A stretch of DNA of 64,000 nucleotides, taken from Centroscyllium fabricii. Lineage: Eukaryota. The translations under genes and the position numbers were made by a program. Where the stretch lies: positions 3,224,001 through 3,288,000 of the forward strand of contig JBNRSN020000007.1 of the NCBI GenBank assembly GCA_051313645.2, read 5' to 3'. Shown here piece after piece: positions 5,754 through 37,625 of this stretch. Under the pieces are notes generated by a model, which was not told the origin of the DNA, did no database searches, and was given only the letters and a program-made list of their open reading frames with translations. Positions within the stretch are counted from its first letter, which is position 1. Each line of letters opens with the position of its first letter.

Positions 5754-7946
5754 AGTGCAGCCTCCGGTCTACACGTCACTCCGGGATCAGTGCAGCCTCC
5801 GGTCTACACGTCTCTCCGGGATCAGTGCAGCCTCCGGTCTACACGTCACTCCGGGATCAGTGCAGCCTCCGGTCTACACGTCACTCCGGGATCAGTGCAG
5901 CCTTCGGTCCACACGTCACTCCGGGATCAGTGCAGCCTCCGGTCTACACGTCACTCCGGGATCAGTGCAGCCTCCGGTCCACACGTCACTCCGGGATCAG
6001 TGCAGCCTCCAGTCAACACGTCACTCTGGGATCAGTGCAGCCTCCGGTCTACACGTCACTCCGGGATTAGTGCAGCCTCCAGTCTACACGTCACTCCGGG
6101 ATCAGTGCAGCCTCCGGTCTACACGTCACTCTGGGATCAGTGCAGCCTCCGGTCTACACGTCACTCTGGGATCAGTGCAGCCTCCAGTCAACACGTCACT
6201 CTGGGATCAGTGCAGCCTCCGGTCCACACGTCACTCCGGGATCAGTGCAGCCTCCAGTCTACACGTCACTCCGGGATCAGTGCAGCCTCCGGTCTACACG
6301 TCACTCTGGGATCAGTGCAGCCTCCGGTCTACACGTCACTCTGGGATCAGTGCAGCCTCCGGTCTACACGTCACTCTGGGATCAGTGCAGCCTCCGGACT
6401 ACACGTCACTCTGGGATCAGTGCAGCCTCCAGTCAACACGTCACTCTGGGATCAGTGCAGCCTCCAGTCTACACGTCACTCTGGGATCAGTGCAGCCTCC
6501 GGTCCACACGTCACTCTGGGATCAGTGCAGCCTCCGGTCCACACGTCACTCCGGGATCAGTGCAGCCTCCGGTCCACACGTCACTCCGGGATCAGTGCAG
6601 CCTCCGGTCCACACGTCACTCCGGGATCAGTGCAGCCTCCGGTCTACACATCACTCCGGGATCAGTGCAGCCTCCGGTCAACACGTCACTCTGGGATCAG
6701 TGCAGCCTCCGGTCTACACGTCACTCCGGGATCAGTGCAGCCTCCAGTCAACACGTCACTCTGGGATCAGTGCAGCCTCCAGTCTACACGTCACTCCGGG
6801 ATCAGTGCAGCCTCCGGTCTACACGTCACTCTGGGATCAGTGCAGCCTCCGGTCTACACGTCACTCTGGGATCAGTGCAGCCTCCGGTCTACACGTCACT
6901 CTGGGATCAGTGCAGCCTCTGGTCTACACGTCACTCTGGGATCAGTGCAGCCTCCAGTCAACACGTCACTCTGGGATCAGTGCAGCCTCCAGTCTACACG
7001 TCACTCTGGGATCAGTGCAGCCTCCAGTCAACACGTCACTCTGGGATCAGTGCAGCCTCCGGTCTACACATCACTCCGGGATCAGTGCAGCCTCCGGTCT
7101 ACACATCACTCTGGGATCAGTGCAGCCTCCGGTCTACACATCACTCCGGGATCAGTGCAGCCTCCAGTCAACACGTCACTCTGGGATCAGTGCAGCCTCC
7201 AGTCTACACGTCACTCTGGGATCAGTGCAGCCTCCGGTCTACACGTCACTCTGGGATCAGTGCAGCCTCCGGTCTACACGTCACTCTGGGATCAGTGCAG
7301 CCTCCGGTCTACACGTCACTCTGGGATCAGTGCAGCCTCCGGTCTACACGTGACTCCGGGATCAGTGCAGCCTCCGGTCTACACGTCACTCCGGGATCAG
7401 TGCAGCCTCCAGTCTACACGTCACTCTGGGATCAGTGCAGCCTCCGGTCTACACGTCACTCTGGGATCAGTGCAGCCTCCGGTCTACACATCACTCCGGG
7501 ATCAGTGCAGCCTCCAGTCAACACATCACTCTGGGATCAGTGCAGCTTCCAGTCAACACGTCACACTGGGATCAGTGCAGCCTCCAGTCCACACGTCACT
7601 CTGGGATCAGTGCAGCCTCCGGTCTACACATCACTCCGGGATCAGTGCAGCCTCCAGTCAACACGTGACTCCGGGATCAGTGCAGCCTCCAGTCTACACG
7701 TCACTCTGGGATCAGTGCAGCCTCCAGTCTACACATCACTCCGGGATCAGTGCAGCCTCCAGTCAACACGTCACTCTGGGATCAGTGCAGCCTCCAGTCT
7801 ACACGTCACTCTGGGATCAGTGCAGCCTCCAGTCAACACATCACTCCGGGATCAGTGCAGCCTCCAGTCAACACGTGACTCCGGGATCAGTGCAGCCTCC
7901 AGTCTACACGTTACTCTGGGATCAGTGCAGCCTCCGGTCCACACGT
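5754..7946. repeat. 35-bp minisatellite, about 62 copies
   Basis: Unit GGATCAGTGCAGCCTCCGGTCTACACGTCACTCCG with a few recurrent variants. Confidence 0.97.
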
Positions 7947-8831
7947 CATCAGAATGCTGCAATGTATAAATGGTCTTTCCAACACAACACATTTCAGTGG
8001 TGATTAAATTTACATTTTATAATCAAATGATTAAAAAAGTGATCATTTACAAAAAGGGTAAAGCACACCATTAAACCAAACATTTGATAGGACTGAATAC
8101 CACACTCACTAATATACACCCCCGCGGAAAGCTGAAATCCCCCAGAGTATATAGATGCTTTATGGGCACACAATTTACAATATTCTACAAATCTTGGGTA
8201 AGCTATTCCATAGCAGTTACTCCAGACAGGACCCATTCGACAGGCAGCGAATGCAGTTGATCAAACTACTTACTATTTAGCAGATAGGTTACAACAGCAA
8301 CCAAGAGCTGCTCAGTGCATGTTTTTTTACATCGCACAGAATTAGCCTATGAAGTGCGGATTGCCCTAACTGTAGCCCTTTAATCCAGGACTCGCTCCCA
8401 TCCAGACAACACCAGAGGACAATATCCTTCGTGCAGCTCCCGTGCCAGCTGGTATTGGAGATTCATCACCATCTCTTCGCTACAGGAAACAGCCGAGAGA
8501 GTTTCCTGAAATACTATGATCTCTTCATTCAGAACAGTGTCTCACTTGGAGAGGGGAACGATGGCTGTGTGAAATTCTGTCTTAATCTTGGGTTGTAGAC
8601 AGACGACTATTCTATTTTCAACCCAGCTGCGGTAAGGACTGTCATTCGGGTATTGCGGCACACGTGACACACGAGTGCAGCGCGCACACGGACAAAGATA
8701 CTGGACTCGTGCAGTGCTGCATTCCCAAGTGAGAAACCAGGTTGTGCCAGTTTGCTCATATACCAACTGGGCAGGTTTTAGAGTACTTGCCACAGAAAAC
8801 CACACCCATATCCTACATATATGTACATATA

Positions 8832-14062: not shown

Positions 14063-17000
14063 CTCAGCCCATCACCCTGCGCCAATGCTAGCTGTTCAAC
14101 GGGACCTACCTACTCCAATCCCCTCACCCTGCGCCAATGCTAGCTGTTCAACGGGACCCATCCACTCCAATCACCCCTCCCTGGGCCAATGCTAGCTGTT
14201 CAACGGGACCTACCCACTCCAATCACCCCTCCCTGCGCCAATGCTAGCTGTTCAACGGGACCTACCTACTCCAATCGCCTCTCCCTGCGCCAATGCTAGC
14301 TGTTCAACGGGACCTACCCACTCCAATCGCCTCACCCTGCGCCAATGCTAGCTGTTCAACGGGACCTACCCACTCCAATCCCATCACCCTGCGCCAATGC
14401 TAGCTGTTCAACGGGACCTACCCACTCCAATCCCCCCTCCCTGCGCCAATGCTAGCTGTTCAACAGGACCTACCCACTCAGCCCATCACCCTGCGCCAAT
14501 GCTAGCTGTTCAACGGGACCTACCCACTCCAATCCCATCATCCTGCGCCAATGCTAGCTGTTCAACGGGACCTACCCACTCCAATCGCCTCTCCCTGCGC
14601 CAATGCTGGCTGTTCAACGGGACCTACCCACTCCAATCTCCTCACCCTGTGCCAATGCTAGCTGTTCAACGGGACCTATCTACTCCAATCGCCTCTCCCT
14701 GCGCCAATGCTAGCTGTTCAACGGGACCTACCCACTCCAATCTCCTCACCCTGCGCCAATGCTAGCTGTTCAACGGGACCCATCCACTCCAATCCCCCCT
14801 CCCTGCGCCAATGCTAGCTGTTCAACGGGACCTACCTACTCCAATCCCATCACCCTGCACCAATGCTAGCTGTTCAACGGGACCTACCCACTCAGCCCAT
14901 CATCCTGCGCCAATGCTAGCTGTTCAACGGGACCCATCCACTCCAATCGCCTCACCCTGCGCCAATGCTAGCTGTTCAACGGGACCTACCCACTCCAATC
15001 CCATCACCCAGCGCCAATGCTAGCTGTTCAACAGGACCTACCCACTCCAATCCCATCACCCTGCGCCAATGCTAGCTGTTCAACGGGACCTACCCACTCA
15101 GCCCATCACCCTGCGCCAATGCTAGCTGTTCAACGGGACCTACCCACTCCAATCCCATCACCCTGCGCCGATGCTAGCTGTTCAACGGGACCCAACCACT
15201 CCAATCCCCCCTCCCTGTGCCAATGCTAGCTGTTCAACGGGACCTACCTACTCCAATCCCATCACCCTGCGCCAATGCTAGCTGTTCAACGGGACCCATC
15301 CACTCCAATCCCCCCTCCCTGTGCCAATGCTAGCTGTTCAACGGGACCTACCTACTCCAATCCCCCCTCCCTGCGCCAATGCTAGCTGTTCAACGGGACC
15401 TACCCACTCCAATCCCATCACCCTGTGCCAATGCTAGCTGTTCAACGGGACCTACCTACTCCAATCCCATCACCCTGCGCCAATGCTAGCTGTTCAACGG
15501 GACCTACCCACTCCAATGCCATCACCCTGCGCCAATGCTAGCTGTTCAACGGGACCTACCCACTCCAATCTCCCCTCCCTGCGCCAATGCTAGCTGTTCA
15601 ACGGGACCCATCCACTCCAATCCCATCACCCTGCGCCAATGCTAGCTGTTCAACGGGACCTACCCACTCCAATCCCATCATCCTGCGCCAATGCTAGCTG
15701 TTCAACGGGACCCATCCACTCCAATCCCATCACCCTGCGCCAATGCTAGCTGTTCAACGGGACCTACCTACTCAGCCCATCATCCTGCGCCAATGCTAGC
15801 TGTTCAACGGGACCCATCCACTCCAATCCCCCCTCCCTGCGCCAATGCTAGCTGTTCAACGGGACCTACCTACTCCAATCCCATCACCCTGCGCCAATGC
15901 TAGCTGTTCAACGAGACCCATCCACTCCAATCCCCCCTCCCTGCGCCAATGCTAGCTGTTCAACGGGACCTACCCACTCCAATCCCCTTACCCTGCGCCA
16001 ATGCTAGCTGTTCAACGGGACCTACCCACTCCAATCCCATCACCCTGCGCCGATGCTAGCTGTTCAACGGGACCTACCTACTCCAATCGCCTCTCCCTGC
16101 GCCAATGCTAGCTGTTCAACGGGACCTACCCACTCCAATCTCCTCACCCTGCGCCAATGCTAGCTGTTCAACGGGACCTACCCACTCCAATCCCATCACC
16201 CTGCGCCAATGCTAGCTGTTCAACGGGACCTACCTACTCCAATCCCATCACCCTGCGCCAATGCTAGCTGTTCAACGGGACCTACCCACTCCAATCCCAT
16301 CACCCTGCGCCAATGCTAGCTGTTCAACGGGACCTACCCACTCAGCCCATCACCCTGCGCCGATGCTAGCTGTTCAACGGGACCTACCTACTCCAATCCC
16401 ATCACCCTGCGCCAATGCTAGCTGTTCAACGGGACCTACCCACTCCAATCGCCTCACCCTGCGCCAATGCTAGCTGTTCAACGGGACCTACCCACTCCAA
16501 TCCCATCACCCTGCGCCAATGCTAGCTGTTCAACGGGACCTACCCACTCAGCCCATCATCCTGCGCCAATGCTAGCTGTTCAACGGGACCCATCCACTCC
16601 AATCCCCCCTCCCTGCGCCAATGCTAGCTGTTCAACGGGACCTACCCACTCCAATCCCATCACCCTGCGCCGATGCTAGCTGTTCAACGGGACCCATCCA
16701 CTCCAATCCCCCCTCCCTGTGCCAATGCTAGCTGTTCAACGGGACCTACCTACTCCAATCCCATCACCCTGCGCCAATGCTAGCTGTTCAACGGGACCCA
16801 TCCACTCCAATCCCCCCTCCCTGTGCCAATGCTAGCTGTTCAACGGGACCTACCTACTCCAATCTCCTCACCCTGCGCCAATGCTAGCTGTTCAACGGGA
16901 CCTACCCACTCCAATCCCATCACCCTGCGCCAATGCTAGCTGTTCAACGGGACCTACCTACTCCAATCGCCTCTCCCTGCGCCAATGCTAGCTGTTCAAC

Positions 17001-20000
17001 GGGACCCATCCACTCCAATCCCCCCTCCCTGCGCCAATGCTAGCTGTTCAACGGGACCTACCCACTCCAATCTCCTCACCCTGCGCCAATGCTAGCTGTT
17101 CAACGGGACCTACCCACTCCAATCCCCTCACCCTGCGCCAATGCTAGCTGTTCAACGGGACCTACCTACTCCAATCCCATCACCCTGCGCCAATGCTAGC
17201 TGTTCAACGGGACCTACCCACTCAGCCCATCATCCTGCGCCAATGCTAGCTGTTCAACGGGACCCATCCACTCCAATCCCCTCACCCTGCGCCAATGCTA
17301 GCTGTTCAACAGGACCTACCCACTCCAATCCCATCACCCTGCGCCAATGCTAGCTGTTCAACGGGACCTACCCACTCAGCCCATCACCCTGCGCCAATGC
17401 TAGCTGTTCAACGGGACCTACCCACTCCAATCCCATCACCCTGCGCCGATGCTAGCTGTTCAACGGGACCCAACCACTCCAATCCCCCCTCCCTGTGCCA
17501 ATGCTAGCTGTTCAACGGGACCTACCTACTCCAATCCCATCACCCTGCGCCAATGCTAGCTGTTCAACGGGACCCATCCACTCCAATCCCCCCTCCCTGT
17601 GCCAATGCTAGCTGTTCAACGGGACCTACCTACTCCAATCCCCCCTCCCTGCGCCAATGCTAGCTGTTCAACGGGACCTACCCACTCCAATCCCATCACC
17701 CTGCGCCAATGCTAGCTGTTCAACGGGACCTACCTACTCCAATCCCATCACCCTGCGCCAATGCTAGCTGTTCAACAGGACCTACCCACTCCAATCCCAT
17801 CATCCTGCGCCAATGCTAGCTGTTCAACGGGACCCATCCACTCCAATCCCATCACCCTGCGCCAATGCTAGCTGTTCAACGGGACCTACCTACTCAGCCC
17901 ATCATCCTGCGCCAATGCTAGCTGTTCAACGGGACCCATCCACTCCAATCCCCCCTCCCTGCGCCAATGCTAGCTGTTCAACGGGACCTACCTACTCCAA
18001 TCCCATCACCCTGCGCCAATGCTAGCTGTTCAACGAGACCCATCCACTCCAATCCCCCCTCCCTGCGCCAATGCTAGCTGTTCAACGGGACCTACCCACT
18101 CCAATCCCCTTACCCTGCGCCAATGCTAGCTGTTCAACGGGACCTACCCACTCCAATCCCATCACCCTGCGCCGATGCTAGCTGTTCAACGGGACCTACC
18201 TACTCCAATCGCCTCTCCCTGCGCCAATGCTAGCTGTTCAACGGGACCTACCCACTCCAATCTCCTCACCCTGCGCCAATGCTAGCTGTTCAACGGGACC
18301 TACCCACTCCAATCCCATCACCCTGCGCCAATGCTAGCTGTTCAACGGGACCTACCTACTCCAATCCCATCACCCTGCGCCAATGCTAGCTGTTCAACGG
18401 GACCTACCCACTCCAATCCCATCACCCTGCGCCAATGCTAGCTGTTCAACGGGACCTACCCACTCAGCCCATCACCCTGCGCCGATGCTAGCTGTTCAAC
18501 GGGACCTACCTACTCCAATCCCATCACCCTGCGCCAATGCTAGCTGTTCAACGGGACCTACCCACTCCAATCGCCTCACCCTGCGCCAATGCTAGCTGTT
18601 CAACGGGACCTACCCACTCCAATCCCATCACCCTGCGCCAATGCTAGCTGTTCAACGGGACCTACCCACTCAGCCCATCATCCTGCGCCAATGCTAGCTG
18701 TTCAACGGGACCCATCCACTCCAATCCCCCCTCCCTGCGCCAATGCTAGCTGTTCAACGGGACCTACCTACTCCAATCCCATCACCCTGCGCCAATGCTA
18801 GCTGTTCAACGGGACCCATCCACTCCAATCCCCCCTCCCTGTGCCAATGCTAGCTGTTCAACGGGACCTACCTACTCCAATCTCCTCACCCTGCGCCAAT
18901 GCTAGCTGTTCAACGGGACCTACCCACTCCAATCCCATCACCCTGCGCCAATGCTAGCTGTTCAACGGGACCTACCTACTCCAATCCCATCACCCTGCGC
19001 CAATGCTAGCTGTTCAACGGGACCTACCCACTCCAATCCCATCACCCTGCGCCAATGCTAGCTGTTCAACGGGACCTACCTACTCCAATCGCCTCTCCCT
19101 GCGCCAATGCTAGCTGTTCAACGGGACCTACCCACTCCAATCGCCTCACCCTGCGCCAATGCTAGCTGTTCAACGGGACCCATCCACTCCAATCCCCCCT
19201 CCCTGCGCCAATGCTAGCTGTTCAACGGGACCTACCCACTCAGCCCATCACCCTGCGCCAATGCTAGCTGTTCAACGGGACCTACCCACTCCAATCCCAT
19301 CATCCTGCGCCAACGCTAGCTGTTCAACGGGACCTACCCACTCCAATCCCCTCACCCTGTGCCAATGCTAGCTGTTCAACGGGACCTACCCACTCCAATC
19401 CCATCATCCTGCGCCAATGCTAGCTGTTCAACGGGACCTACCCACTCCAATCCCATCACCCTGCGCCAATGCTAGCTGTTCAACGGGACCTACCCACTCC
19501 AATCCCATCACCCTGCGCCAATGCTAGCTGTTCAACGGGACCTATCTACTCCAATCGCCTCTCCCTGCGCCAATGCTAGCTGTTCAACGGGACCTACCCA
19601 CTCCAATCCCATCATCCTGCGCCAATGCTAGCTGTTCAACGGGACCTACCTACTCAGCCCATCATCCTGCGCCAATGCTAGCTGTTCAACGGGACCCATC
19701 CACTCCAATCCCCCCTCCCTGCGCCAATGCTAGCTGTTCAACGGGACCTACCTACTCCAATCCCCTCACCCTGCGCCAATGCTAGCTGTTCAACGGGACC
19801 TACCCACTCCAATCCCATCACCCTGCGCCGATGCTAGCTGTTCAACGGGACCTACCCACTCCAATCTCCTCACCCTGCGCCAATGCTAGCTGTTCAACGG
19901 GACCTACCCACTCCAATCCCATCACCCTGCGCCAATGCTAGCTGTTCAACGGGACCTACCTACTCCAATCCCATCACCCTGCGCCAATGCTAGCTGTTCA

Positions 20001-21540
20001 ACGGGACCTACCCACTCCAATCTCCTCACCCTGCGCCAATGCTAGCTGTTCAACGGGACCTACCTACTCCAATTCCATCACCCTGCGCCAATGATAGCTG
20101 TTCAACGGGACCCACCCACTCCAATCCCATCACCCTGCGCCAATGCTAGCTGTTCAACGGGACCTACCCACTCCAATCCCATCACCCTGCGCCAATGCTA
20201 GCTGTTCAACGGGACCTACCCACTCCAATTTCCTCACCCTGCGCCAATGCTAGCTGTTCAACGGGACCTACCCACTCCAATCCCATCACCCTGCGCCAAT
20301 GCTAGCTGTTCAACGGGACCTACCCACTCCAATCCCATCACCCTGCGCCAATGCTAGCTGTTCAACGGGACCTACCCACTCCAATCTCCTCACCCTGCGC
20401 CAATGCTGGCTGTTCAACGGGACCTACCCACTCCAATCCCATCACCCTGCGCCAATGCTAGCTGTTCAACGGGACCTACCCACTCAGCCCATCATCCTGC
20501 GCCAATGCTAGCTGTTCAACGGGACCCATCCACTCCAATCCCCCCTCCCTGCGCCAATGCTAGCTGTTCAACGGGACCTACCCACTCCAATCTCCTCACC
20601 CTGCGCCAATGCTAGCTGTTCAACGGGACCTACCCACTCCAATCCCCTCACCCTGCGCCAATGCTAGCTGTTCAACGGGACCCATCCACTCCAATCCCCC
20701 CTCCCTGCGCCAATGCTAGCTGTTCAACGGGACCTACCTACTCCAATCCCATCACCCTGCGCCAATGCTAGCTGTTCAACGGGACCTACCCACTCCAATC
20801 CCATCACCCTGCGCCAATGCTAGCTGTTCAACGGGACCCATCCACTCCAATCCCCTCACCCTGCGCCAATGCTAGCTGTTCAACGGGACCTACCCACTCC
20901 AATCCCATCACCCTGCGCCGATGCTAGCTGTTCAACGGGACCTACCCACTCCAATCTCCTCACCCTGCGCCAATGCTAGCTGTTCAACGGGACCTACCCA
21001 CTCCAATCCCATCACCCTGCGCCGATGCTAGCTGTTCAACGGGACCCATCCACTCCAATCCCCCCTCCCTGTGCCAATGCTAGCTGTTCAACGGGACCTA
21101 CCTACTCCAATCCCATCACCCTGCGCCAATGCTAGCTGTTCAACGGGACCCATCCACTCCAATCCCCCCTCCCTGTGCCAATGCTAGCTGTTCAACGGGA
21201 CCTACCTACTCCAATCCCCCCTCCCTGCGCCAATGCTAGCTGTTCAACGGGACCTACCCACTCCAATCCCATCACCCTGTGCCAATGCTAGCTGTTCAAC
21301 GGGACCTACCTACTCCAATCCCCTCACCCTGCGCCAATGCTAGCTGTTCAACGGGACCTACCTACTCCAATCCCCCCTCCCTGCGCCAATGCTAGCTGTT
21401 CAACGGGACCTACCTACTCCAATCCCATCACCCTGCGCCAATGCTAGCTGTTCAACGGGACCTACCCACTCCAATCCCCTCTCCCTGCGCCAATGCTAGC
21501 TGTTCAACGGGACCTACCTACTCCAATCCCCTCTCCCTGC
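14063..21540. repeat. 7.5-kb array of 52-bp units (50-bp variant), about 144 copies, inside a minus-strand LINE/SINE 3' tail
   Basis: Unit CCCTGCGCCAATGCTAGCTGTTCAACGGGACCTACCCACTCCAATCCCATCA; flanks are CATAGAATCACAGAA and CR1-like sequence. Confidence 0.97.
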
Positions 21541-22018: not shown

Positions 22019-22567
22019 CTGCAATATTGTTAATAGTGAGTTAGAGTACCGGCACCAAGTGAACGGTTGATAGCAAGTGAAGTTAAGTACAAGTTGTAAA
22101 TATTAGTAAGCACTGAGTGAGCTTAATGTGTTTTATAGTGTGAATAATACAAACTAATAACTTCAAGGTGAAGCTTATTTCCATAATGCTTTTTAAAAAG
22201 GTTTTTTTAGGCATTATATACAAACTGTGACTTTGCAACAGCAAAACACGGCCATGGAAAAGTTTACTATTATTGCAATGCAAGCTGAAATACAGAGCTC
22301 CTGACAAGCGCCCGTTCAATCTTGAAACGACAGTCATAGCAATCTCAACGGAAATGGCACAGAACGTTTGGAATGCTATGAATCTTCAGCTCACATTTTT
22401 TTTGAAAATTATTCCATCCCACCAGTTGGTAAACCTATGCGTCAGTGGGATGTGCCAATTGTAATGTTGTGCATAAGTGCTCGATTTAATTTCACAATTC
22501 TTTATCCCTGGATAGGGAGGTTGCATCATGGACTTTCCACTCTTGGCTCCAAGGCTGGGATGGAAGA

Positions 22568-23320
22568 AAAACCTCCTCCCTGATGACTGCCAGTCAATCC
22601 TCAGCTCTGAAAAACCTCCTCCCTGATGACTGCCAGTCAATCCTCAGCTCTGAAAAACCTCCTCCCTGATGACTGCCAGTCAATCCTCAGCTCTGAAACC
22701 TCCTCCCTGATGACTGCCAGTCAATCTTCAGCTCTGAAACCTCCTCCCTGATGACTGCCAGTCAATCCTCAGCTCTGAAAAACCTCCTCCCTGATGACTG
22801 CCAGTCAATCCTCAGCTCTGAAAAACCTCCTCCCTGATGACTGCCAGTCAATCCTCAGCTCTGAAAAACCTCCTCCCTGATGACTGCCAGTCAATCCTCA
22901 GCTCTGAAAAACCTCCTCCCTGATGACTGCCAGTCAATCCTCAGCTCTGAAACCTCCTCCCTGATGACTGCCAGTCAATCCTCAGCTCTGAAACCTCCTC
23001 CCTGATGACTGCCAGTCAATCTTCAGCTCTGAAACCTCCTCTCTGATGACTGCCAGTCAATCCTCAGCTCTGAAACCTCCTCCCTGATGACTGCCAGTCA
23101 ATCCTCAGCTCTGAAACCTCCTCTGATGACTGCCAGTCAATCCTCAGCTCTGAAACCTCCTCTCTGATGACCCAGTCAATCCTCAGCTCTGAAACCGCCT
23201 CCCTGATGACTGCCAGTCAATCCTCAGCTCTGAAAAACCTCCTCCCTGATGACTGCCAGTCAATCCTCAGCTCTGAAAAACCTCCTCCCTGATGACTGCC
23301 AGTCAATCCTCAGCTCTGAA
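22568..23320. repeat. 43/41-bp minisatellite, about 18 copies
   Basis: Unit AAAACCTCCTCCCTGATGACTGCCAGTCAATCCTCAGCTCTGA; directly abuts a CR1 5' end. Confidence 0.95.
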
Positions 23321-25220
23321 GCATTGCTGGTCATCTTCCAAAATTATATAGACTCTGGAACAGTACCCATGGATTGGAGGGTAGCAAATGTTACCCCACT
23401 ATTCAAAAAAGGTGGTAGAGAGAAAACGGGGAATTATAGCCTGACATCGGTAGTGGGGAAAATGCTAAAGTCCATTATAAAAGATGTAATAGCAGAGCAC
23501 TTGGAAAACAGTGACAGGATTGGACAAAGTCAACATGGATTTACAAAAGGTAAATCGTGCTCGACTAACCTACTGGAATTTTTTGAGGATGTAACTGGTG
23601 AAATAGATAAGGGAGAACCAGTAGATGTGGTGTATTTGGACTTTCAGAAGGCTTTCGATAAGGTCACACATAAGAGATTAGTGTGCAAAATTAAAAGCAC
23701 ATGGGATTGGGGGCAAGGTGCTGACTTGGATAGAGAACTGGTTGGCAGACAGAAAGCAAAGAGTTGGAATAAACGGGTCTTTTTCCGAGTGGCAGGCAGT
23801 GACTAGTGGGGTAAACATAGAAACATAGAAGATAGGAGCAGGAGTAGGCCATTCGGCCCTTCGAGCCTGCTCCGCCATTCAATGAGATCATGGCTGATCA
23901 TCCAAACCCAGCACCCCGCCCCTGCCCTGTCCCCATATCCCTCGATCCCTATCGAGCCTGCACCGACACATATCCCACCCTATCCCCGTAACCCCACATA
24001 TTCAATCCCCCTAACACGAAGGGTCAATTTATCATGGCTAATCAACCTAACCCGCACATCTTTGGACTGTGGGAGGAAACCGGAGCACCCGGAGGAAACC
24101 CACGCAGACACGGGGAGAATGTGCAAACTCCACACAGATAGTCACCCGAGGCTGGATTTGAACCCGGGTCTCCAGTGCTGTAAGGCAACAGTGCTAACCA
24201 CTATGCCACTGTGCCGCAGGGATCGTTCCTTGGACCCCAGCTATTCACAATATATATTAATGATCTGGACGAGGAAACTAGATGTAATATCTCAAAATCT
24301 GCAGATGACACAAAGCTGGGTGGGCCTGTGTGCTGTGAGGAGGATGCCGAGAAACTCCAGGATGATTTGGACAGGTTGGGTGATTGGGCAGAAGCATGGC
24401 AGATGCAGTATAATGTGGATAAATGCGAAGTTATCCATTTTGGTGGCAAAAACAGGAAGGCAGATTATCTGAACTGCAATAGATTGGGAGAAGGGGAAGT
24501 GCAACAACATCTGGGTGTCCTTGTGCACCAGTCACTGAAGGTAAGCATGCAGGTGCAGCAGGCAGTGAAGAAGGTAAATGGTATGTTGGCCTTCGTAGCA
24601 AGAGGATTCGAGTACAGGAACAGGGAGGTCTTGCTGCAGTTGTACAGGGCCTTGGTGAGACCACACCTTGAATATTGTGTGCAGTTTTGGTCGCCTTATC
24701 TAAGGAAGGATGTTCTTGCCATGGAAGGAGTGCAGCGAAGATTCACCAGGCTGATACCTGGGATGGCAGGAATGACGTATGAGGAGAGATTGTGTCGATT
24801 GGACTTATACTCGCTGGAATTTATATGAGAGGGGATCTCATTGAAACTTATGAAATTCTAACAGGACTAGACAGACTAGACGCAGGAAGGATGTTCCTGA
24901 TGGCCGGGGTGTCCAGAACCAGGGGTCACAGTCTAAGGAAAAGGGGTAAGCCATTTAGGACAGAAATGAGGAGGAATTTCTTCACCCAGAGAATGGTGAA
25001 CCTGTGGAATTCTCTACCACAGAAGGCAGTTGAGGCCAATTCATTAAATATATTCAAGAAGGAGTTGGATATATTTCTTAAGGCTAAAGGGATCAAGGGA
25101 TATGGGGAGAAGGCAGGGACAGGGTACTGAATTTAGATGATCAGCCATGATCTCATTGAATGACAGGGCAGGCTCGAGGGGCCGAATGGCCGACTCCTGC
25201 TCCTATCTTCTATGTTTCTG
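23321..25220 (+). mobile_element. 5'-truncated CR1 LINE interrupted by a SINE
   Basis: RT motifs on both sides of the SINE (VTSG|VPQG junction); intact 3' UTR. Confidence 0.93.
23814..24217 (-). mobile_element. HE1-like V-SINE inserted in CR1
   Basis: Same family as 421-821. Confidence 0.9.
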
Positions 25221-28592: not shown

Positions 28593-30478
28593 GTGGCTGG
28601 GTGTCACATTTTGCCTGATTACGCTCCTGTGAAACACCGTGGGACATTTTGCTATATCAAAGGCGCTATATAAATGCAAGTTGTTAGTACTTGGACATTC
28701 TCAGAAGGACAATATGTGGTGATTCTCCGAGTCATATTCAAGAGGTGCAATTAATAGACAGAAACATGTGTAACCTGGGTCTGAAACCCAGAGTCAGGGA
28801 GAATCTCCCTAAAGGGTTAAAAGTCTGGGGATCCAGTGGTCTGAGGTCAGGTGACTTCTTCGGTGCCAGTTTGTCTGGAAGTTTGATCACAAGGGGGTTG
28901 TTGTCCAGGTGTGAGTATGAACAATGTTGCCGAAAGGCTGGGCTGCCATGGAAACCAGCACTCGGCTCCGGCCAGTCTGGAAAAACAAGGAGTCTTGCAG
29001 GTGGGGGCTGTGTGATTGCTTTGCGATAGGCTGGCTAAAAGTGGGGTGAGTTACTGGAGGGTGGAGCCAGGACAGGATAAAAGGCTGGACACGCCTAGAG
29101 ACAGGATTAAGATAGAGCGCAGGAGGAAGAGAGAAGATTGAGCAGGAGGTTAGATTGAGAAGATCCGGGGAAGATCCAGAAGGAGGTTAGATTGAGAAGA
29201 TCCGGGAAAGATCCAGAGAAGCCATGAGAGAGGCAGTTCCAAGAGCCGTCGTTGTTTCCCTTGGGATGAGTAGGCTGTAGTGTACGGTACTCATTGCCAA
29301 GCCCTGTTCGGACAGTCGTGAGTGGCGGCTACTGAGAGAAGGGCTTGGGGAAGACGAGGTTGCAGGAAGCAGAGGGTGGAGAAGTGTGTTTGATGCCCAC
29401 TGCTGGAAGATGCTGGAGGCTTTCGTGTTAAAAGGACTGAGAGACAGTCCCAAGAGCCGTCGTTGTTTCCCTTGAGATGAGTAGGCTGTAGTGTACGGTA
29501 CTCATTGTCAAGCCCTGTTCGGACAGTCGTGAGTGGCGGCTACTGAGAGAAGGGCTTGGGGAAGACGAGGTTGCAGGAAGCAGAGGGTGGAGAGCTGTGT
29601 GCGACGCCCATTGCTGGAAGAGGCTGGAGGCTTTCGTGTTAAAAGGACTGAGAGACAGTTCCAAGAGCCGTCGTTGTTTCTCTTGAGATGAGTAGGCTGT
29701 AGTGTACGGTACTCATTGTCAAGCCCTATTCGGACAGTCGTGAGTGGCGGCTACTGAGAGAAGGGCTTGGGGAAGACGAGGTTGCAGGAAGCAGAGGGTG
29801 GAGAGCTGTGTGCGACGCCCACTGCTGGAAGATGCTGGAAGCTTTCGTGTTAAAAGGACAGAGGCAGATCCAAGAGCCGTCGTTGTCTCCCTTGAGATGA
29901 GGAGACTGTAGTGTACGGTCCTCATTGTCAAGCCCTATTCGGACAGTCGTGAGTAATAACTTCTGAGAAAAGGGCTTGGGGAACAAGGTGTAAGGGTGCT
30001 AAAGTGGATGCCTTGCCATTGTAAATTGCTGATTGAAATGTGTTCTGTAAGGGTGCTAAAGCGAGTGCCTTGCCATTGTAAATTGCTGATTGAAATGTGT
30101 TCTGGAAGGGTGCTAAAGCGAGCGCCTTGCCATTGTAAAGTTCTGATTGAAGTGTGTTCTTGGGAGTGGTTGTGAGCTGAATGAATGCTGATTGATTTGT
30201 TGTATGACATTAATGCTACTTTCTATTTTTGTATCTAGTTGCTAGTTGTTTAACACTGTTTGTATTTAACCTCTATCTCCCAACCCTGTTATTAAAGTTT
30301 GTAAATAGAAATCTGGTCTCAGATTCATCTCTCTCAAGTTAAAAGGGTTACATTTGGGTGGAGGTCACAGAATTCTACACGTGGGGTACGTTAAGAACCT
30401 ACGGGGTAATTGGTATTAACCTAACCCCCCATTCTCAGTAAAGGAGAGGGGGGGGCCAATCGTAAAAAGGGTTACATT

Positions 30479-30496
30479 TGGGGGCTCGTCCGGGAT
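30479..30496 (+). other. Primer-binding site complementary to the 3' end of tRNA-Pro
   Basis: TGGGGGCTCGTCCGGGAT, 2 nt after the 5' LTR; the same sequence as the MLV Pro PBS. Confidence 0.92.
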
Positions 30497-30610
30497 ACTG
30501 TGACTTCCAGTTTCATACACTAGTGGAGTGAACCCATTGTTGCCGAGAGAGAGATGGACGTGAGCACGGTTACTTAGTGGTGTAGTCATGAGGACATGAC
30601 TAGGTTTGGT

Positions 30611-30620
30611 AAGGGGGGAG
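30611..30620 (+). other. Polypurine tract
   Basis: AAGGGGGGAG immediately before the 3' LTR. Confidence 0.88.
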
Positions 30621-31975
30621 TGTAACCTGGGTCTGAAACCCAGAGTCAGGGAGAATCTCCCTAAAGGGTTAAAAGTCTGGGGATCCAGTGGTCTGAGGTC
30701 AGGTGACTTCTTCGGTGCCAGTTTGTCTGGAAGTTTGATCACAAGGGGGTTGTTGTCCAGGTGTGAGTATGAACAATGTTGCCGAAAGGCTGGGCTGCCA
30801 TGGAAACCAGCACTCGGCTCCGGCCAGTCTGGAAAAACAAGGAGTCTTGCAGGTGGGGGCTGTGTGATTGCTTTGCGATAGGCTGGCTAAAAGTGGGGTG
30901 AGTTACTGGAGGGTGGAGCCAGGACAGGATAAAAGGCTGGACACGCCTAGAGACAGGATTAAGATAGAGCGCAGGAGGAAGAGAGAAGATTGAGCAGGGG
31001 GTTAGATTGAGAAGATCCGGGGAAGATCCAGAAGGAGGTTAGATTGAGAAGATCCGGGAAAGATCCAGAGAAGCCATGAGAGAGGCAGTTCCAAGAGCCG
31101 TCGTTGTTTCCCTTGGGATGAGTAGGCTGTAGTGTACGGTACTCATTGCCAAGCCCTGTTCGGACAGTCGTGAGTGGCGGCTACTGAGAGAAGGGCTTGG
31201 GGAAGACGAGGTTGCAGGAAGCAGAGGGTGGAGAGCTGTGTGCGACGCCCACTGCTGGAAGATGCTGGAAGCTTTCGTGTTAAAAGGACAGAGGCAGATC
31301 CAAGAGCCGTCGTTGTCTCCCTTGAGATGAGGAGACTGTAGTGTACGGTCCTCATTGTCAAGCCCTATTCGGACAGTCGTGAGTAATAACTTCTGAGAAA
31401 AGGGCTTGGGGAACAAGGTGTAAGGGTGCTAAAGTGGATGCCTTGCCATTGTAAATTGCTGATTGAAATGTGTTCTGTAAGGGTGCTAAAGCGAGTGCCT
31501 TGCCATTGTAAATTGCTGATTGAAATGTGTTCTGGAAGGGTGCTAAAGCGAGCGCCTTGCCATTGTAAAGTTCTGATTGAAGTGTGTTCTTGGGAGTGGT
31601 TGTGAGCTGAATGAATGCTGATTGATTTGTTGTATGACATTAATGCTACTTTCTATTTTTGTATCTAGTTGCTAGTTGTTTAACACTGTTTGTATTTAAC
31701 CTCTATCTCCCAACCCTGTTATTAAAGTTTGTAAATAGAAATCTGGTCTCAGATTCATCTCTCTCAAGTTAAAAGGGTTACATTTGGGTGGAGGTCACAG
31801 AATTCTACACGTGGGGTACGTTAAGAACCTACGGGGTAATTGGTATTAACCTAACCCCCCATTCTCAGTAAAGGAGAGGGGGGGGCCAATCGTAAAAAGG
31901 GTTACACATGTTAGTGCTTCCTTTAGACTTTCTTTAAAGCCTGAACTCCTCAGTCCTCATCTGATCAGCCCTTAC

Positions 31976-34834: not shown

Positions 34835-37625
34835 TAGGGTTTAAATCAAACCTGGCCACAGCAAATAATAATTCTAAAAGGTCTAAGAGTGTTAAAAAAC
34901 AAGCCTGAAGGCTTTGTGTCTTAATGCGAGGAGCATTCGTAATAAGGTGGATGAATTAGCTGCGTAAATAGAGGTAAACACAGAAACACAGAAGATAGGA
35001 GCAGGAGTAGGCCATTCGACCCTGCTCCGCCATTTTGACGAGATCATGGCTGATCATCCAAACCCAGCACCCCCCTCCTACCCTCTCCCCATATCCCCTG
35101 ACACCCCCAACTCTAAGAACTATATCGCACACACATGCTCATGGGCAATTTTTAGTATCTCCAATTCTCCAATTCACCTAACCTGCATGTCTTTGGGTGG
35201 TGGGAGGAAACCGGAGGAAACCCACACGAACACGGGGAGAACATGCAAACTCCACGCAGAGAGGTCCCGGGCCAAGCAGGATTTGAACCCAGGAGCTCCT
35301 TATTGCGAGGCAACAGTGCTAACCACTGCGCCACTGTGTCGAATATATGATAGGGATTACGGAAACATGGCTCCAGGGTGGCCAAGGCTGGGAACTCAAC
35401 ATCCTGGGGTATTTAATATTCAGGAAAGATGGGCAAAAAGGAAAAGGAGGTGGGGTAGCATTGCTGGTTAAAGAGGGGATTAACACAATTGTAAGGATGG
35501 ATATTAGCACTGATGATGTGGAATCTGTATGGGTAGACCTGAGAAATACCAAGGGGCAGAAAACGTTAGTGGGAGTGGTATATAGACCCCCAAACAGTAA
35601 TGCGGAGGTTGGGGATGGCATTAAAAGGGAAATTAGAGAAGCGTGCAATAAGGGCACAGCCGTTAGCATGGGTGACTTTAATCTACATGTAGATTGGGCT
35701 AACCAAATTAGTAACAATACTGCGAAAGAGGAATTCCTGGAGTGTATACGGGATGGTTTCCTGGACCAATATGTCGAGGAACCAACTAGCGATCAGGCCA
35801 TCTTAGACTGGGTATTATGTAATGAGAAAGGATGAATTAGCAATCTTGTGTGAGGCCCCTTGGGGCGGAGCAATCATAATATGATAGAATTCTTCATTAA
35901 GATGGAGACTTAAGTAGTTGACTCAGAGACTAGGGTCCTGAATTTAAATAAAGGAAACTACGATGGTATGAGGTGCGAGTTTGGTAGGATTGATTGGGTT
36001 ATGTCACTCAAAGGGTTGACTGTGGATAGGCAATGGCAAACATTCAAAGATCGTATGGATGAACTACAGAATTTGTTCATCCCAGTTTGGCATAAAAATA
36101 AAAATAAAAAGGTGACTCAACCGTGGCCAACAAGGGAAATTAGAGATAGCATAAGATCCAAGGAGAGGACATATAAATCGGCCAGAAAAAGCAGTAAACC
36201 TGAGAATTGGGAGCAGTTTAGGATTCAACAAAGGAGCACAAAGGGATTCATTAAGAGGAGGGAAATAGAGGATGAAAGTAAGCTTGCAGGGAACATAAAA
36301 ACTGACTGTAAAAGCTTCTATAGACATGTGAAGAGAAAAAGATTGGTGAAGTCAAGCGTAGGTCCCTTGCAGTGAGAAGCAGGGTAATTTATAATGGGGA
36401 ACAAAGAAATGGCAGACCAATTAAATACATACTTTGGTTCTGTCTTCACAAAGGAGGACACAAATAACCTTCCAGAGATGTCGAGGGAGGAACTGATGGA
36501 AATCAGTATTTGTAGGGAAATGGTGTTAGAGAATTTGATGGGATTTAAGGCCAATAAATCCCCAGGGCCTGATAATCGACATCCTAGGGTACTTAAGGAA
36601 GTGGCCCTAGAAATAGTAGATGCATTGCTGGTCATCTTCCAAAATTCAATAGACTCTGGAACATACCCATGGATTGGAGGGTTGCTAATGTTACCCTTCT
36701 ATTCAAAAAAGGCGGTAGAGAAAAAGCAGGGAATTACAGACCGGTAAGCCTGACATCCGTAGTGGGGAAAATGCTAGAGTCCAATATAAAAGATGTAATA
36801 GCAGAGCACTTGGAAAACAGTGACTGGATTGGACAAACTCAACATGGATTTACAATGGTTAAGTCGTGCTTGACTAATCTACTGGAGTTTTTTGAGGATG
36901 TAACTGGTAAAATAGATAAGGGAGAACCAGTGGATATGGTGTATTTGGACTTTCAAAAGGTGTTCGATAAGGACCCGCATAAGAGATTAGCTTGTAAAGT
37001 TAAGGCACATGGGATTGGTGGCAAGGTATTGACTTGGATAGAGAACTGGTTGGCAGACAGAAAGCAAAGAGTTGGAATAAACGGGTCTTGGTCGCCTTAT
37101 CTGAGGAAGGATGTTCTTGCCATGGAGGGAGTGCAGCGAAGATTCACCAGGCTGAAACCTGGAATGGCAGGAATGACGTATGAGGCGAGATTGGGTCGAT
37201 TGGGCTTATACTCACTGGAGTTTGGAAGAATGAGAGGGGATCTCATTGAAACTTATAAAATTCTAACAGGACTGGGCAGACTAGATGCAGGAAGGATGTT
37301 CCCGATGGCAGGGGGTCCAGAACCAGGGGTCACAGTCTAAGGATAAGGGGTAAACCATTCAGGACAGAGATGAGGAGGAATTTCTTCATCCAGAAAGTGG
37401 TGAACCTGTGGAATTCTCTACCACAGAAGGCCATAGAGGCCAATTCATTAAAGATATTCAAGAAGGAGTTGGATATATTTCTTAAGGCTAAAGGGATCAA
37501 GGGATATGGGGAGAAGGCAGGGACAGGGTACTGGGTTTGGATGATCAGCCATGATCGCATTGAATGGTGGAGCAGTCTCGAGGGGCCAAATGGCCTACTC
37601 CTGCTCCTATCTTCTATGTTTCTAT
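34835..37625 (+). mobile_element. CR1 LINE ORF2 with APE endonuclease and partial RT; internal deletion at about 37088; SINE variant inserted at 34977-35340
   Basis: NARSIRNK, GITETWL, GGGVALLV, GVVYRPP, GDFN, LDWVL endonuclease motifs; RT jumps from VGINGS directly to WSPYL. Confidence 0.93.

Follow-up and report, generated by a model that had tools for sequence, protein, structure and literature searches.

An LTR retrotransposon with almost nothing between its long terminal repeats (LTRs) raises the question of how it arose and by what machinery it moves. Such an element lies in the window analysed here, a 64,000-nt stretch of the Centroscyllium fabricii genome (assembly GCA_051313645.2, contig JBNRSN020000007.1, positions 3,224,001 to 3,288,000 of the forward strand), where it spans positions 28769-31906 (3138 bp), with LTRs making up 2994 bp (95.4%) of its length. 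A sequence-only reading of this locus had proposed a young, non-coding parasite mobilised in trans by an active Gmr1-like Gypsy element or a class I ERV, possibly of an undescribed family. With a probability of about 0.9, we conclude that the element belongs to a set of about 900 copies, all of one derivative that arose by internal deletion from a shark Gypsy element with a PNMA-type gag, that it is likely served in trans by the full-length parent, and that a sister LTR lineage carries a spliced IGF1 sequence, likely acquired by template-switch capture. The features of the window copy are as follows:

28765..28768, + strand: left target-site duplication (TSD) CATG, read directly; the pre-insertion state is seen in a paralogous flank
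28769..30476, + strand: 5' LTR, 1708 bp, TG...CA, with termini TGTAAC...GTTACA
29076..29082, + strand: TATA-like GATAAAA, with GC-box-like GGGTGGAGCC 5' of the box; predicted promoter, its role inferred
29228..29983, + strand: 211-bp unit, 3.6 copies (1 to 6 across the family)
29989..30160, + strand: 57-bp unit, 3 copies (1 to 5 across the family)
30291..30296, + strand: ATTAAA, predicted polyadenylation signal (putative role)
30341..30352, + strand: LTR-end motif AAAAGGGTTACA, a second, internal copy 124 nt before the real end
30477..30620, + strand: 144-bp core, 108 nt from the start and 38 nt from the end of the parent internal region joined, with the TA at 30583-30584 common to both
30479..30496, + strand: tRNA-Pro primer-binding site (PBS), 18 nt, exact complement of the 3' end plus CCA of a genomic tRNA-Pro(TGG)
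30554..30577, + strand: gag-start remnant, ATG and six codons, then TAG (TTG there in the parent and some mini copies)
30611..30620, + strand: polypurine tract (PPT)
30621..31906, + strand: 3' LTR, 1286 bp, TGTAAC...GTTACA, lacking two 211-bp units and otherwise one substitution from the 5' LTR
31907..31910, + strand: right TSD CATG

The boundaries, the lengths of both LTRs, the perfect PBS, the PPT, the 144-bp core and the LTR share of about 95% all stand as they had been read from the sequence. CATG is a true target duplication: in a paralogue of the 420-bp left flank (98.6% identity, on another contig) CATG occurs once and leads directly into TTAG, with which the right flank begins. One contig in each of runs X1 and X2 matches the left flank as far as 28769, beyond which its sequence is unlike the LTR; this flank also has an uninserted paralogue in the genome. 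The tRNA-Pro(TGG) matched by the PBS was called by ARAGORN, which called a tRNA at one of the five loci tried. The coding capacity of the core is limited to the seven-codon gag stub, and the distance from ATTAAA to the LTR end is 185-189 nt in every mini copy sampled. The two LTRs are set apart by a 422-bp indel, corresponding to two 211-bp units, whose break can be placed anywhere between LTR positions 538 and 614, and by one substitution, A29147 versus G30999. The single mismatch outside the repeat block that had been taken as the sign of a young insertion is thereby confirmed, and with it the recent date. Furthermore, in the 3' LTR the first 211-bp unit is chimeric, joining parts of 5' LTR units 1 and 3, and this suggests that the 3' LTR lost two units from a four-unit state. 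The 211-bp unit has a fold z of -2.0, and Rfam returned for it only weak TCL6_1 matches, far below threshold. Identity as a retrozyme or TRIMp3 was rejected, there being no Rfam match near the gathering score and no tRNA in the window. The window at large is rich in LINE remnants.

The 7.2 Gb assembly was searched with short exact patterns, all match counts being lower bounds, and about 110 loci were read. The 22-nt junction left by the core deletion has at least 926 exact matches, the LTR end joined to a perfect PBS at least 417, and the LTR start at least 3374, while the reversed control patterns gave 0 matches each in the same search; the 926 and 417 matches are hence not due to chance. On contig C1, the 144-bp core is present at 23 of the first 30 loci with a perfect PBS, the other seven having a long internal region. 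Full reading of 33 mini elements found exact, mostly differing 4-bp TSDs at 30, TSDs with one mismatch at two, and none at one compound locus. The core ranges from 144 to 146 bp and the first LTR from 1019 to 2221 bp (32 copies), mainly through variation between 1 and 6 copies of the 211-bp unit and between 1 and 5 of the 57-bp unit. The burst is recent: comparing the two LTRs within each of 26 simple mini copies gives a median of 1 substitution (range 0-24). The family also includes solo LTRs and tandem arrays of LTR and core. The prediction of a multi-copy, non-autonomous family, with many dispersed copies, one shared structure and independent TSDs, is thus borne out; no published report of it was found in the literature searched, and the family may be annotated in Repbase or Dfam.

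These data also bear on where the short core came from. Post-insertion change does happen in this family, as in the window 3' LTR with its two seemingly missing units and at locus L061 with an internal deletion of its own, and one might accordingly imagine that the core was shortened once, at the window locus only. Against this stand the identity of all 926 junctions, their dispersal over sites with differing TSDs, and a low-depth contig of another coded organism that crosses the same junction; a locus-specific origin is refuted, and we give it practically no weight. Since the junctions are identical the copies are not independent deletions, and since their TSDs are distinct they are not segmental duplicates. 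The partner envisaged earlier calls for a different answer. The undeleted side of the junction has at least 440 matches of parent type in the whole genome, and these lead to a gag-pol element that shares the LTR, the tRNA-Pro PBS, the PPT and the TSD length with the mini elements, so that the expected partner does exist in the same genome. Its PBS, 2-nt spacer and 4-bp TSD would be compatible with either a Gmr1-like Gypsy element or a class I ERV. However, its integrase lies downstream of RT and RNase H, its gag is of PNMA type with no SCAN match, and there is no env-sized frame between pol and PPT. As far as the accessible part of PMC8220671 goes, Gmr1 elements have their integrase placed before RT. 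Both identities are refuted for the partner found, and any such partner is very improbable.

The partner is a Ty3/Gypsy element of the PNMA-gag type. In the copies read it has an internal region of 5.2 kb, with a 464-aa gag matching PNMA_N, PNMA and zf-CCHC; pol overlaps it, is about 1250-1270 codons long and has RT (RVT_1; 310-470) followed by RNase H (556-685) and integrase (845-1011). Pol reaches within 40 nt of the 3' LTR and thereby leaves no room for env. The gag and pol frames are open in five of seven long copies in one sample (one more is fused and one internally deleted) and in ten of ten in another, and exact 4-bp TSDs flank all of these (7/7 and 10/10). The 3' part of the mini core matches one of two parent subtypes. 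The LTRs of the mini element are indeed long, but the parent LTRs already measure 1.07-1.35 kb; the length that had been called giant is therefore mostly inherited and not special to the mini element. The gag domains recall the Gypsy12_DR-related elements, to whose gag PNMA genes have been linked in the available text of PMC3789554, a likeness seen at the level of domains. We are highly confident that the window holds a real, young, non-autonomous Gypsy derivative whose parent has been identified.

Several observations point to continuing exchange between the two forms. Trees of the first and of the last 300 nt of the LTR mix mini and parent copies (L062, with a repeat expansion, was excluded from the 5' LTR tree) and disagree with each other; over the first 300 nt, one mini LTR has the same sequence as one parent LTR. 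There are also arrays with identical outer and different inner LTRs, the inner LTR of L093 differing from a parent-type LTR at 11 of 1227 bases. From the interleaved trees and the foreign inner LTRs we infer ongoing recombination in shared particles. In the mechanism that we propose, mini-element RNA would be co-packaged with parent RNA, and the full-length parent likely packages, reverse-transcribes and integrates the mini element in trans. Template switches of RT in such particles would exchange LTR segments between the mini and the full-length form, and might copy whole LTR-core-LTR-core-LTR arrays.

LARDs have a long non-coding internal region, and their threshold in the portions consulted of PMC13570524 is >4 kb; with its core of 144-146 bp the mini element is not a LARD. 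With TRIMs it has in common terminal direct repeats of the form TG...CA, a TSD, a short core with PBS and PPT, and an absence of coding capacity. As characterised in the available text of PMC10886601, PMC6934838 and PMC13570524, TRIMs share LTRs, PBS, PPT, TSDs, solo LTRs, tandem arrays and mobilisation by a partner, but are limited to <1 kb or 1.5 kb, whereas the window copy has 3138 bp and the family ranges from 2.2 to 4.6 kb. The mini element thus works like a TRIM but, failing on size, is not filed as one. The earlier view that it fits TRIMs and LARDs poorly holds for its size; the gap between the two is already recognised, in the excerpts of PMC13570524 on plants, as a size continuum. In the sugar beet data of the same source, families of 1.5-4 kb and families with long LTRs and a short core are common and unnamed, and partners with >70% LTR identity are rare (10 of 115 families). 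The shark partner is present and near-identical. The animal TRIMs described in these three sources, so far as their text was available, are insect, cestode and bivalve elements (PMC10886601, PMC6934838, PMC13570524), and no TRIM-like cases in sharks were found in the literature searched. As elements with long LTRs and a short core are known in plants, this half of the findings is of modest novelty: the mini element is a member of a broad known class, notable as a vertebrate case with its parent at hand.

The other half concerns a sequence that the first reading missed because it lies outside the window, whose copy has no IGF1 cargo in its LTRs. In 3 of the 40 regions first fetched the LTR contains an ORF of 112 aa, which matches Pfam Insulin and is most similar to shark IGF-1 (82-87%). 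Two independent cargo patterns have at least 140 and at least 144 exact matches in the whole genome, so that IGF LTRs amount to 144 of the 3374 LTR starts (about 4%); 100 matches listed represent 59 loci, and extrapolation from the 144 LTRs gives about 85. The IGF1 ATG lies 377-379 nt inside a family LTR in all 30 fetched matches, 70-71 nt after GATAAAA in 29 of them (the other has a variant box), and is, where checked, the first after this TATA-like box; three or four ATGs lie upstream within the LTR, so it is not the first if transcription starts elsewhere. Forty further cargo regions comprise 25 in which a pair of IGF LTRs surrounds a 144- or 146-bp core and 15 with a single LTR; four single IGF LTRs from the 30 fetched matches have a TSD and are solo LTRs, and full-length internal regions, too, can be bounded by IGF LTRs. 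An intact ORF is present in 97 of 98 LTR copies (57 of 58 loci), one copy (L187) having an internal deletion; most of these loci were chosen by exact matches in or beside the cargo. The cargo is not an assembly artefact, because a contig from an independent run (X7, of another study and another organism code) spans both of its junctions with 5 differences in 472 bases. In runs X10 and X11 the cargo is only partly covered, which says nothing on absence. No published report of IGF1 in an LTR was found in the literature searched.

The donor is an intron-containing IGF1 gene on contig C1001, the single find by a splice-donor pattern. The cargo matches two of its exons at 97% and 94%, together with the last bases of the preceding exon, and introns of about 0.9 and 23.7 kb are precisely absent; it is hence a processed copy of host IGF1 with both introns removed. 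It is truncated at both ends, retaining 12-14 nt of the upstream exon and stopping inside the E-peptide exon, after which 11 LTR-derived codons are added. At the 5' junction CAGAAGC is common to the cargo and to a cargo-free sibling LTR, a putative microhomology of 7 nt; at the 3' junction the similarity is imperfect, and no poly(A) tail or flanking duplication was found at the cargo junctions. Alternatively, a LINE could have made an ordinary processed pseudogene that landed in one LTR and multiplied along with it, in which case no template switch in the LTR particle would be involved. LINE remnants are indeed plentiful in the window and introns are removed by both routes, but the cut at both ends, the missing poly(A) tail and duplication, and the heptamer shared with the cargo-free sibling fit this route badly, and we hold it to be improbable. 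Truncation, microhomology and lack of poly(A) and TSD are the marks of template switching in LTR elements according to the available text of PMC5131818, and we favour template switching as the likely route. Capture by this route would have taken place once, when an RT template switch copied about 320 nt of IGF1 mRNA into an LTR at the putative 7-nt microhomology.

Captures of host mRNAs by LTR elements have precedents. Metazoan LTR-mediated retrocopies, in the parts consulted of Tan et al. 2016 (PMC5131818), derive from spliced host mRNA, show microhomology without poly(A) or TSD, were re-amplified in the form of non-autonomous elements and use the LTR promoter. They replace part of the internal ORFs, whereas the shark cargo, which shares with them the removal of introns (two), does not take the place of internal coding sequence and lies inside the LTR, doubled per insertion and kept in solo LTRs. 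It also flanks full-length gag-pol copies, and its copy number of about 144 compares with the 1-5 quoted for Bs1 in that source. The KIT-ligand of CrocERV29, as far as described in the accessible text of PMC4299795, likewise is a growth-factor mRNA held as an intact ORF by a vertebrate LTR element that kept its coding genes; that element, in contrast, is an ERV with the cargo between pol and env, nine ORF copies, old age and purifying selection, whereas the shark element is a Gypsy with the cargo in the LTR and is very young. Cassandra, Helenus and Ajax, in the available part of PMC10886601, are also non-autonomous with host-derived sequence in the LTR, but theirs is a 5S rRNA or tRNA Pol III promoter and not a protein-coding ORF. 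The VILPs of iridoviruses are IGF-type peptides from fish parasites too, though these are DNA viruses with divergent mimics, whereas the shark cargo is the host's own IGF1, nearly unchanged. Viral insulin/IGF-like peptides in the PDB match the LTR cargo at E about 1e-9. Retroviral LTRs can hold ORFs, as in MMTV sag. As the cargo lies between the LTRs in the cases in the consulted parts of PMC5131818 and PMC4299795, the shark variant is distinguished by cargo within the LTR.

Whether the cargo does anything is a separate matter, and our default reading is that it is a recent passenger. If GATAAAA is a promoter and ATTAAA a poly(A) signal, an IGF-bearing LTR would by itself suffice as a cassette encoding prepro-IGF-1 of 112 aa, its E-peptide shortened; R would then exceed 1 kb, with U3, R and U5 placed by motifs, and a capped and polyadenylated IGF1 mRNA could come from any single such LTR. 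That there is expression with a real effect appears rather unlikely to us, and it is only tentatively that we consider a live shark Gypsy to have turned its LTR into a mobile IGF-1 cassette, of which about 140 promoter-ORF-poly(A) units in mini, full-length and solo form would secrete IGF-1, vary in number between individuals and perhaps favour carrier cells or alter the host dose. The corresponding idea that the IGF1 LTRs are expressed and the cargo kept for a benefit to element or host, for instance through survival or division of carrier germ cells, is similarly doubtful. For it speak the position of the ATG as the first after the TATA-like box, and the retention of a predicted signal peptide (24 aa), of the full set of six cysteines in the mature part and of KPQR before the E-peptide. 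Within the mature hormone, cargo and host are separated by four fixed differences, every one synonymous; three of these changes arose on the cargo side, judging by the host base in the outgroup contig (this is a spliced, host-type IGF1 contig from run X18, of another organism code and guessed to be RNA, whose ends run on unlike the LTR). Within the available text of the sources, the captured growth factor of the crocodilian ERV is under purifying selection (PMC4299795), and internal transcripts, from U3/R to R/U5, arise from the solo LTRs of a cestode TRIM (PMC4558846). On the other side, purifying selection is not detected over the cargo as a whole: synonymous changes number 11 of 25, where the observed transition bias predicts 30% (p = 0.10; codon 102, past the junction, and the deleted copy L187 left out of the count), and the nominal synonymous excess of an equal-rates model is not significant once this bias is applied. 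Moreover, all seven variants shared among cargo copies are non-synonymous, including N50H (B domain) and S58G (C domain); the IGF LTRs, being 144 of 3374, have not swept through the family; and intact ORFs are expected in copies so young, in a sample that also favoured exact matches.

What is unexpected here is the amplification of an IGF1 ORF inside an LTR, the mini element alone being of a known kind. IGF1 is normally a single, dose-sensitive gene, and in this shark about 140 extra intact copies ride a recently active element. They will interfere with PCR, RNA-seq and gene annotation aimed at IGF1 in this shark. At the same time the genome holds together the parent, the mini derivative, the cargo-free sibling LTR and the donor gene, a rare complete record for trans-mobilisation and capture. 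With the cargo in its LTR the element loses no genes, gains two cargo copies per insertion and keeps the cargo even after collapse to a solo LTR. If even a few of the copies are expressed, a retrotransposon would be altering the dose of a growth factor in a vertebrate, and, if this is true, the route by which retroviruses capture oncogenes would have a counterpart in an env-less retrotransposon.

Several loci of the family in the shark genome G000 are tandem arrays (L090, L093 and L147-L148), in which the outer LTRs are identical and the inner LTRs are of a different type, that of L093 being the type carried by the parent, the full-length PNMA-gag Gypsy element. The identical outer and foreign inner LTRs, together with the single TSD found per array, suggest that whole arrays are reverse-transcribed as a single unit. 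At L080 (G000:C1:301.55 Mb) two mini elements, the non-autonomous derivatives with a 144-bp core, adjoin each other 6 bases apart, and a matching TSD is absent for the second.

LTRs bearing the spliced IGF1 coding sequence also border full-length gag-pol internal regions at L145-L146 (G000:C1:502.75-502.77 Mb), a tandem of three LTRs with a single TSD. A second, intron-containing IGF-family gene is present at L149-L152 (G000:C712, about 6.71-6.74 Mb); it shares about 60% identity with the cargo across two exons, and was rejected as its donor.

Many family copies (L202-L211, L145-L147) contain 1-2 additional bases following the first 10-12 bases of the tRNA-Pro PBS, among them all long copies of one sample (10/10). 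These insertions fall into several variants, each common to multiple copies, and the copies bearing them include those with 146-bp cores in L160-L192. Their persistence is surprising, because reverse transcription should tend to regain a perfect PBS from the tRNA. As guesses at a cause, the effective PBS could be shorter, or the extra bases could let copies evade silencing by tRNA fragments. Elsewhere in G000, dense matches to the tRNA-Pro 3' end occur at regular spacing (C480, 934-1043 kb; C3, 1.2-2.0 Mb), and ARAGORN called zero tRNAs in the two stretches of these areas that were checked.

The following features were recorded in the window:

5754-7948, minisatellite array, 35 bp x 63
14068-21540, minisatellite array, 52 bp x 144
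22566-23320, minisatellite array, 43 bp x 18
23234-24828 and 35323-37340, broken endonuclease and RT frames near the element, which we take to be LINE-type
30341-30476, LTR end motif, two occurrences 124 nt apart

Between 21600 and 45000, none of the frames of at least 170 aa looked like a host gene. A purine run separates the two LTR-end motifs, and the doubling may stem from an old extension of the terminus. The stretch that starts at 30291 and runs through the core is predicted to fold more stably than each of 100 shuffles (z = -3.4), making it a candidate packaging signal.

A low-depth contig of X10, a sequencing run from another organism, contains the start of the LTR and runs across the junction in the 144-bp core; therefore, the mini element may be older than the current burst or common to several species.
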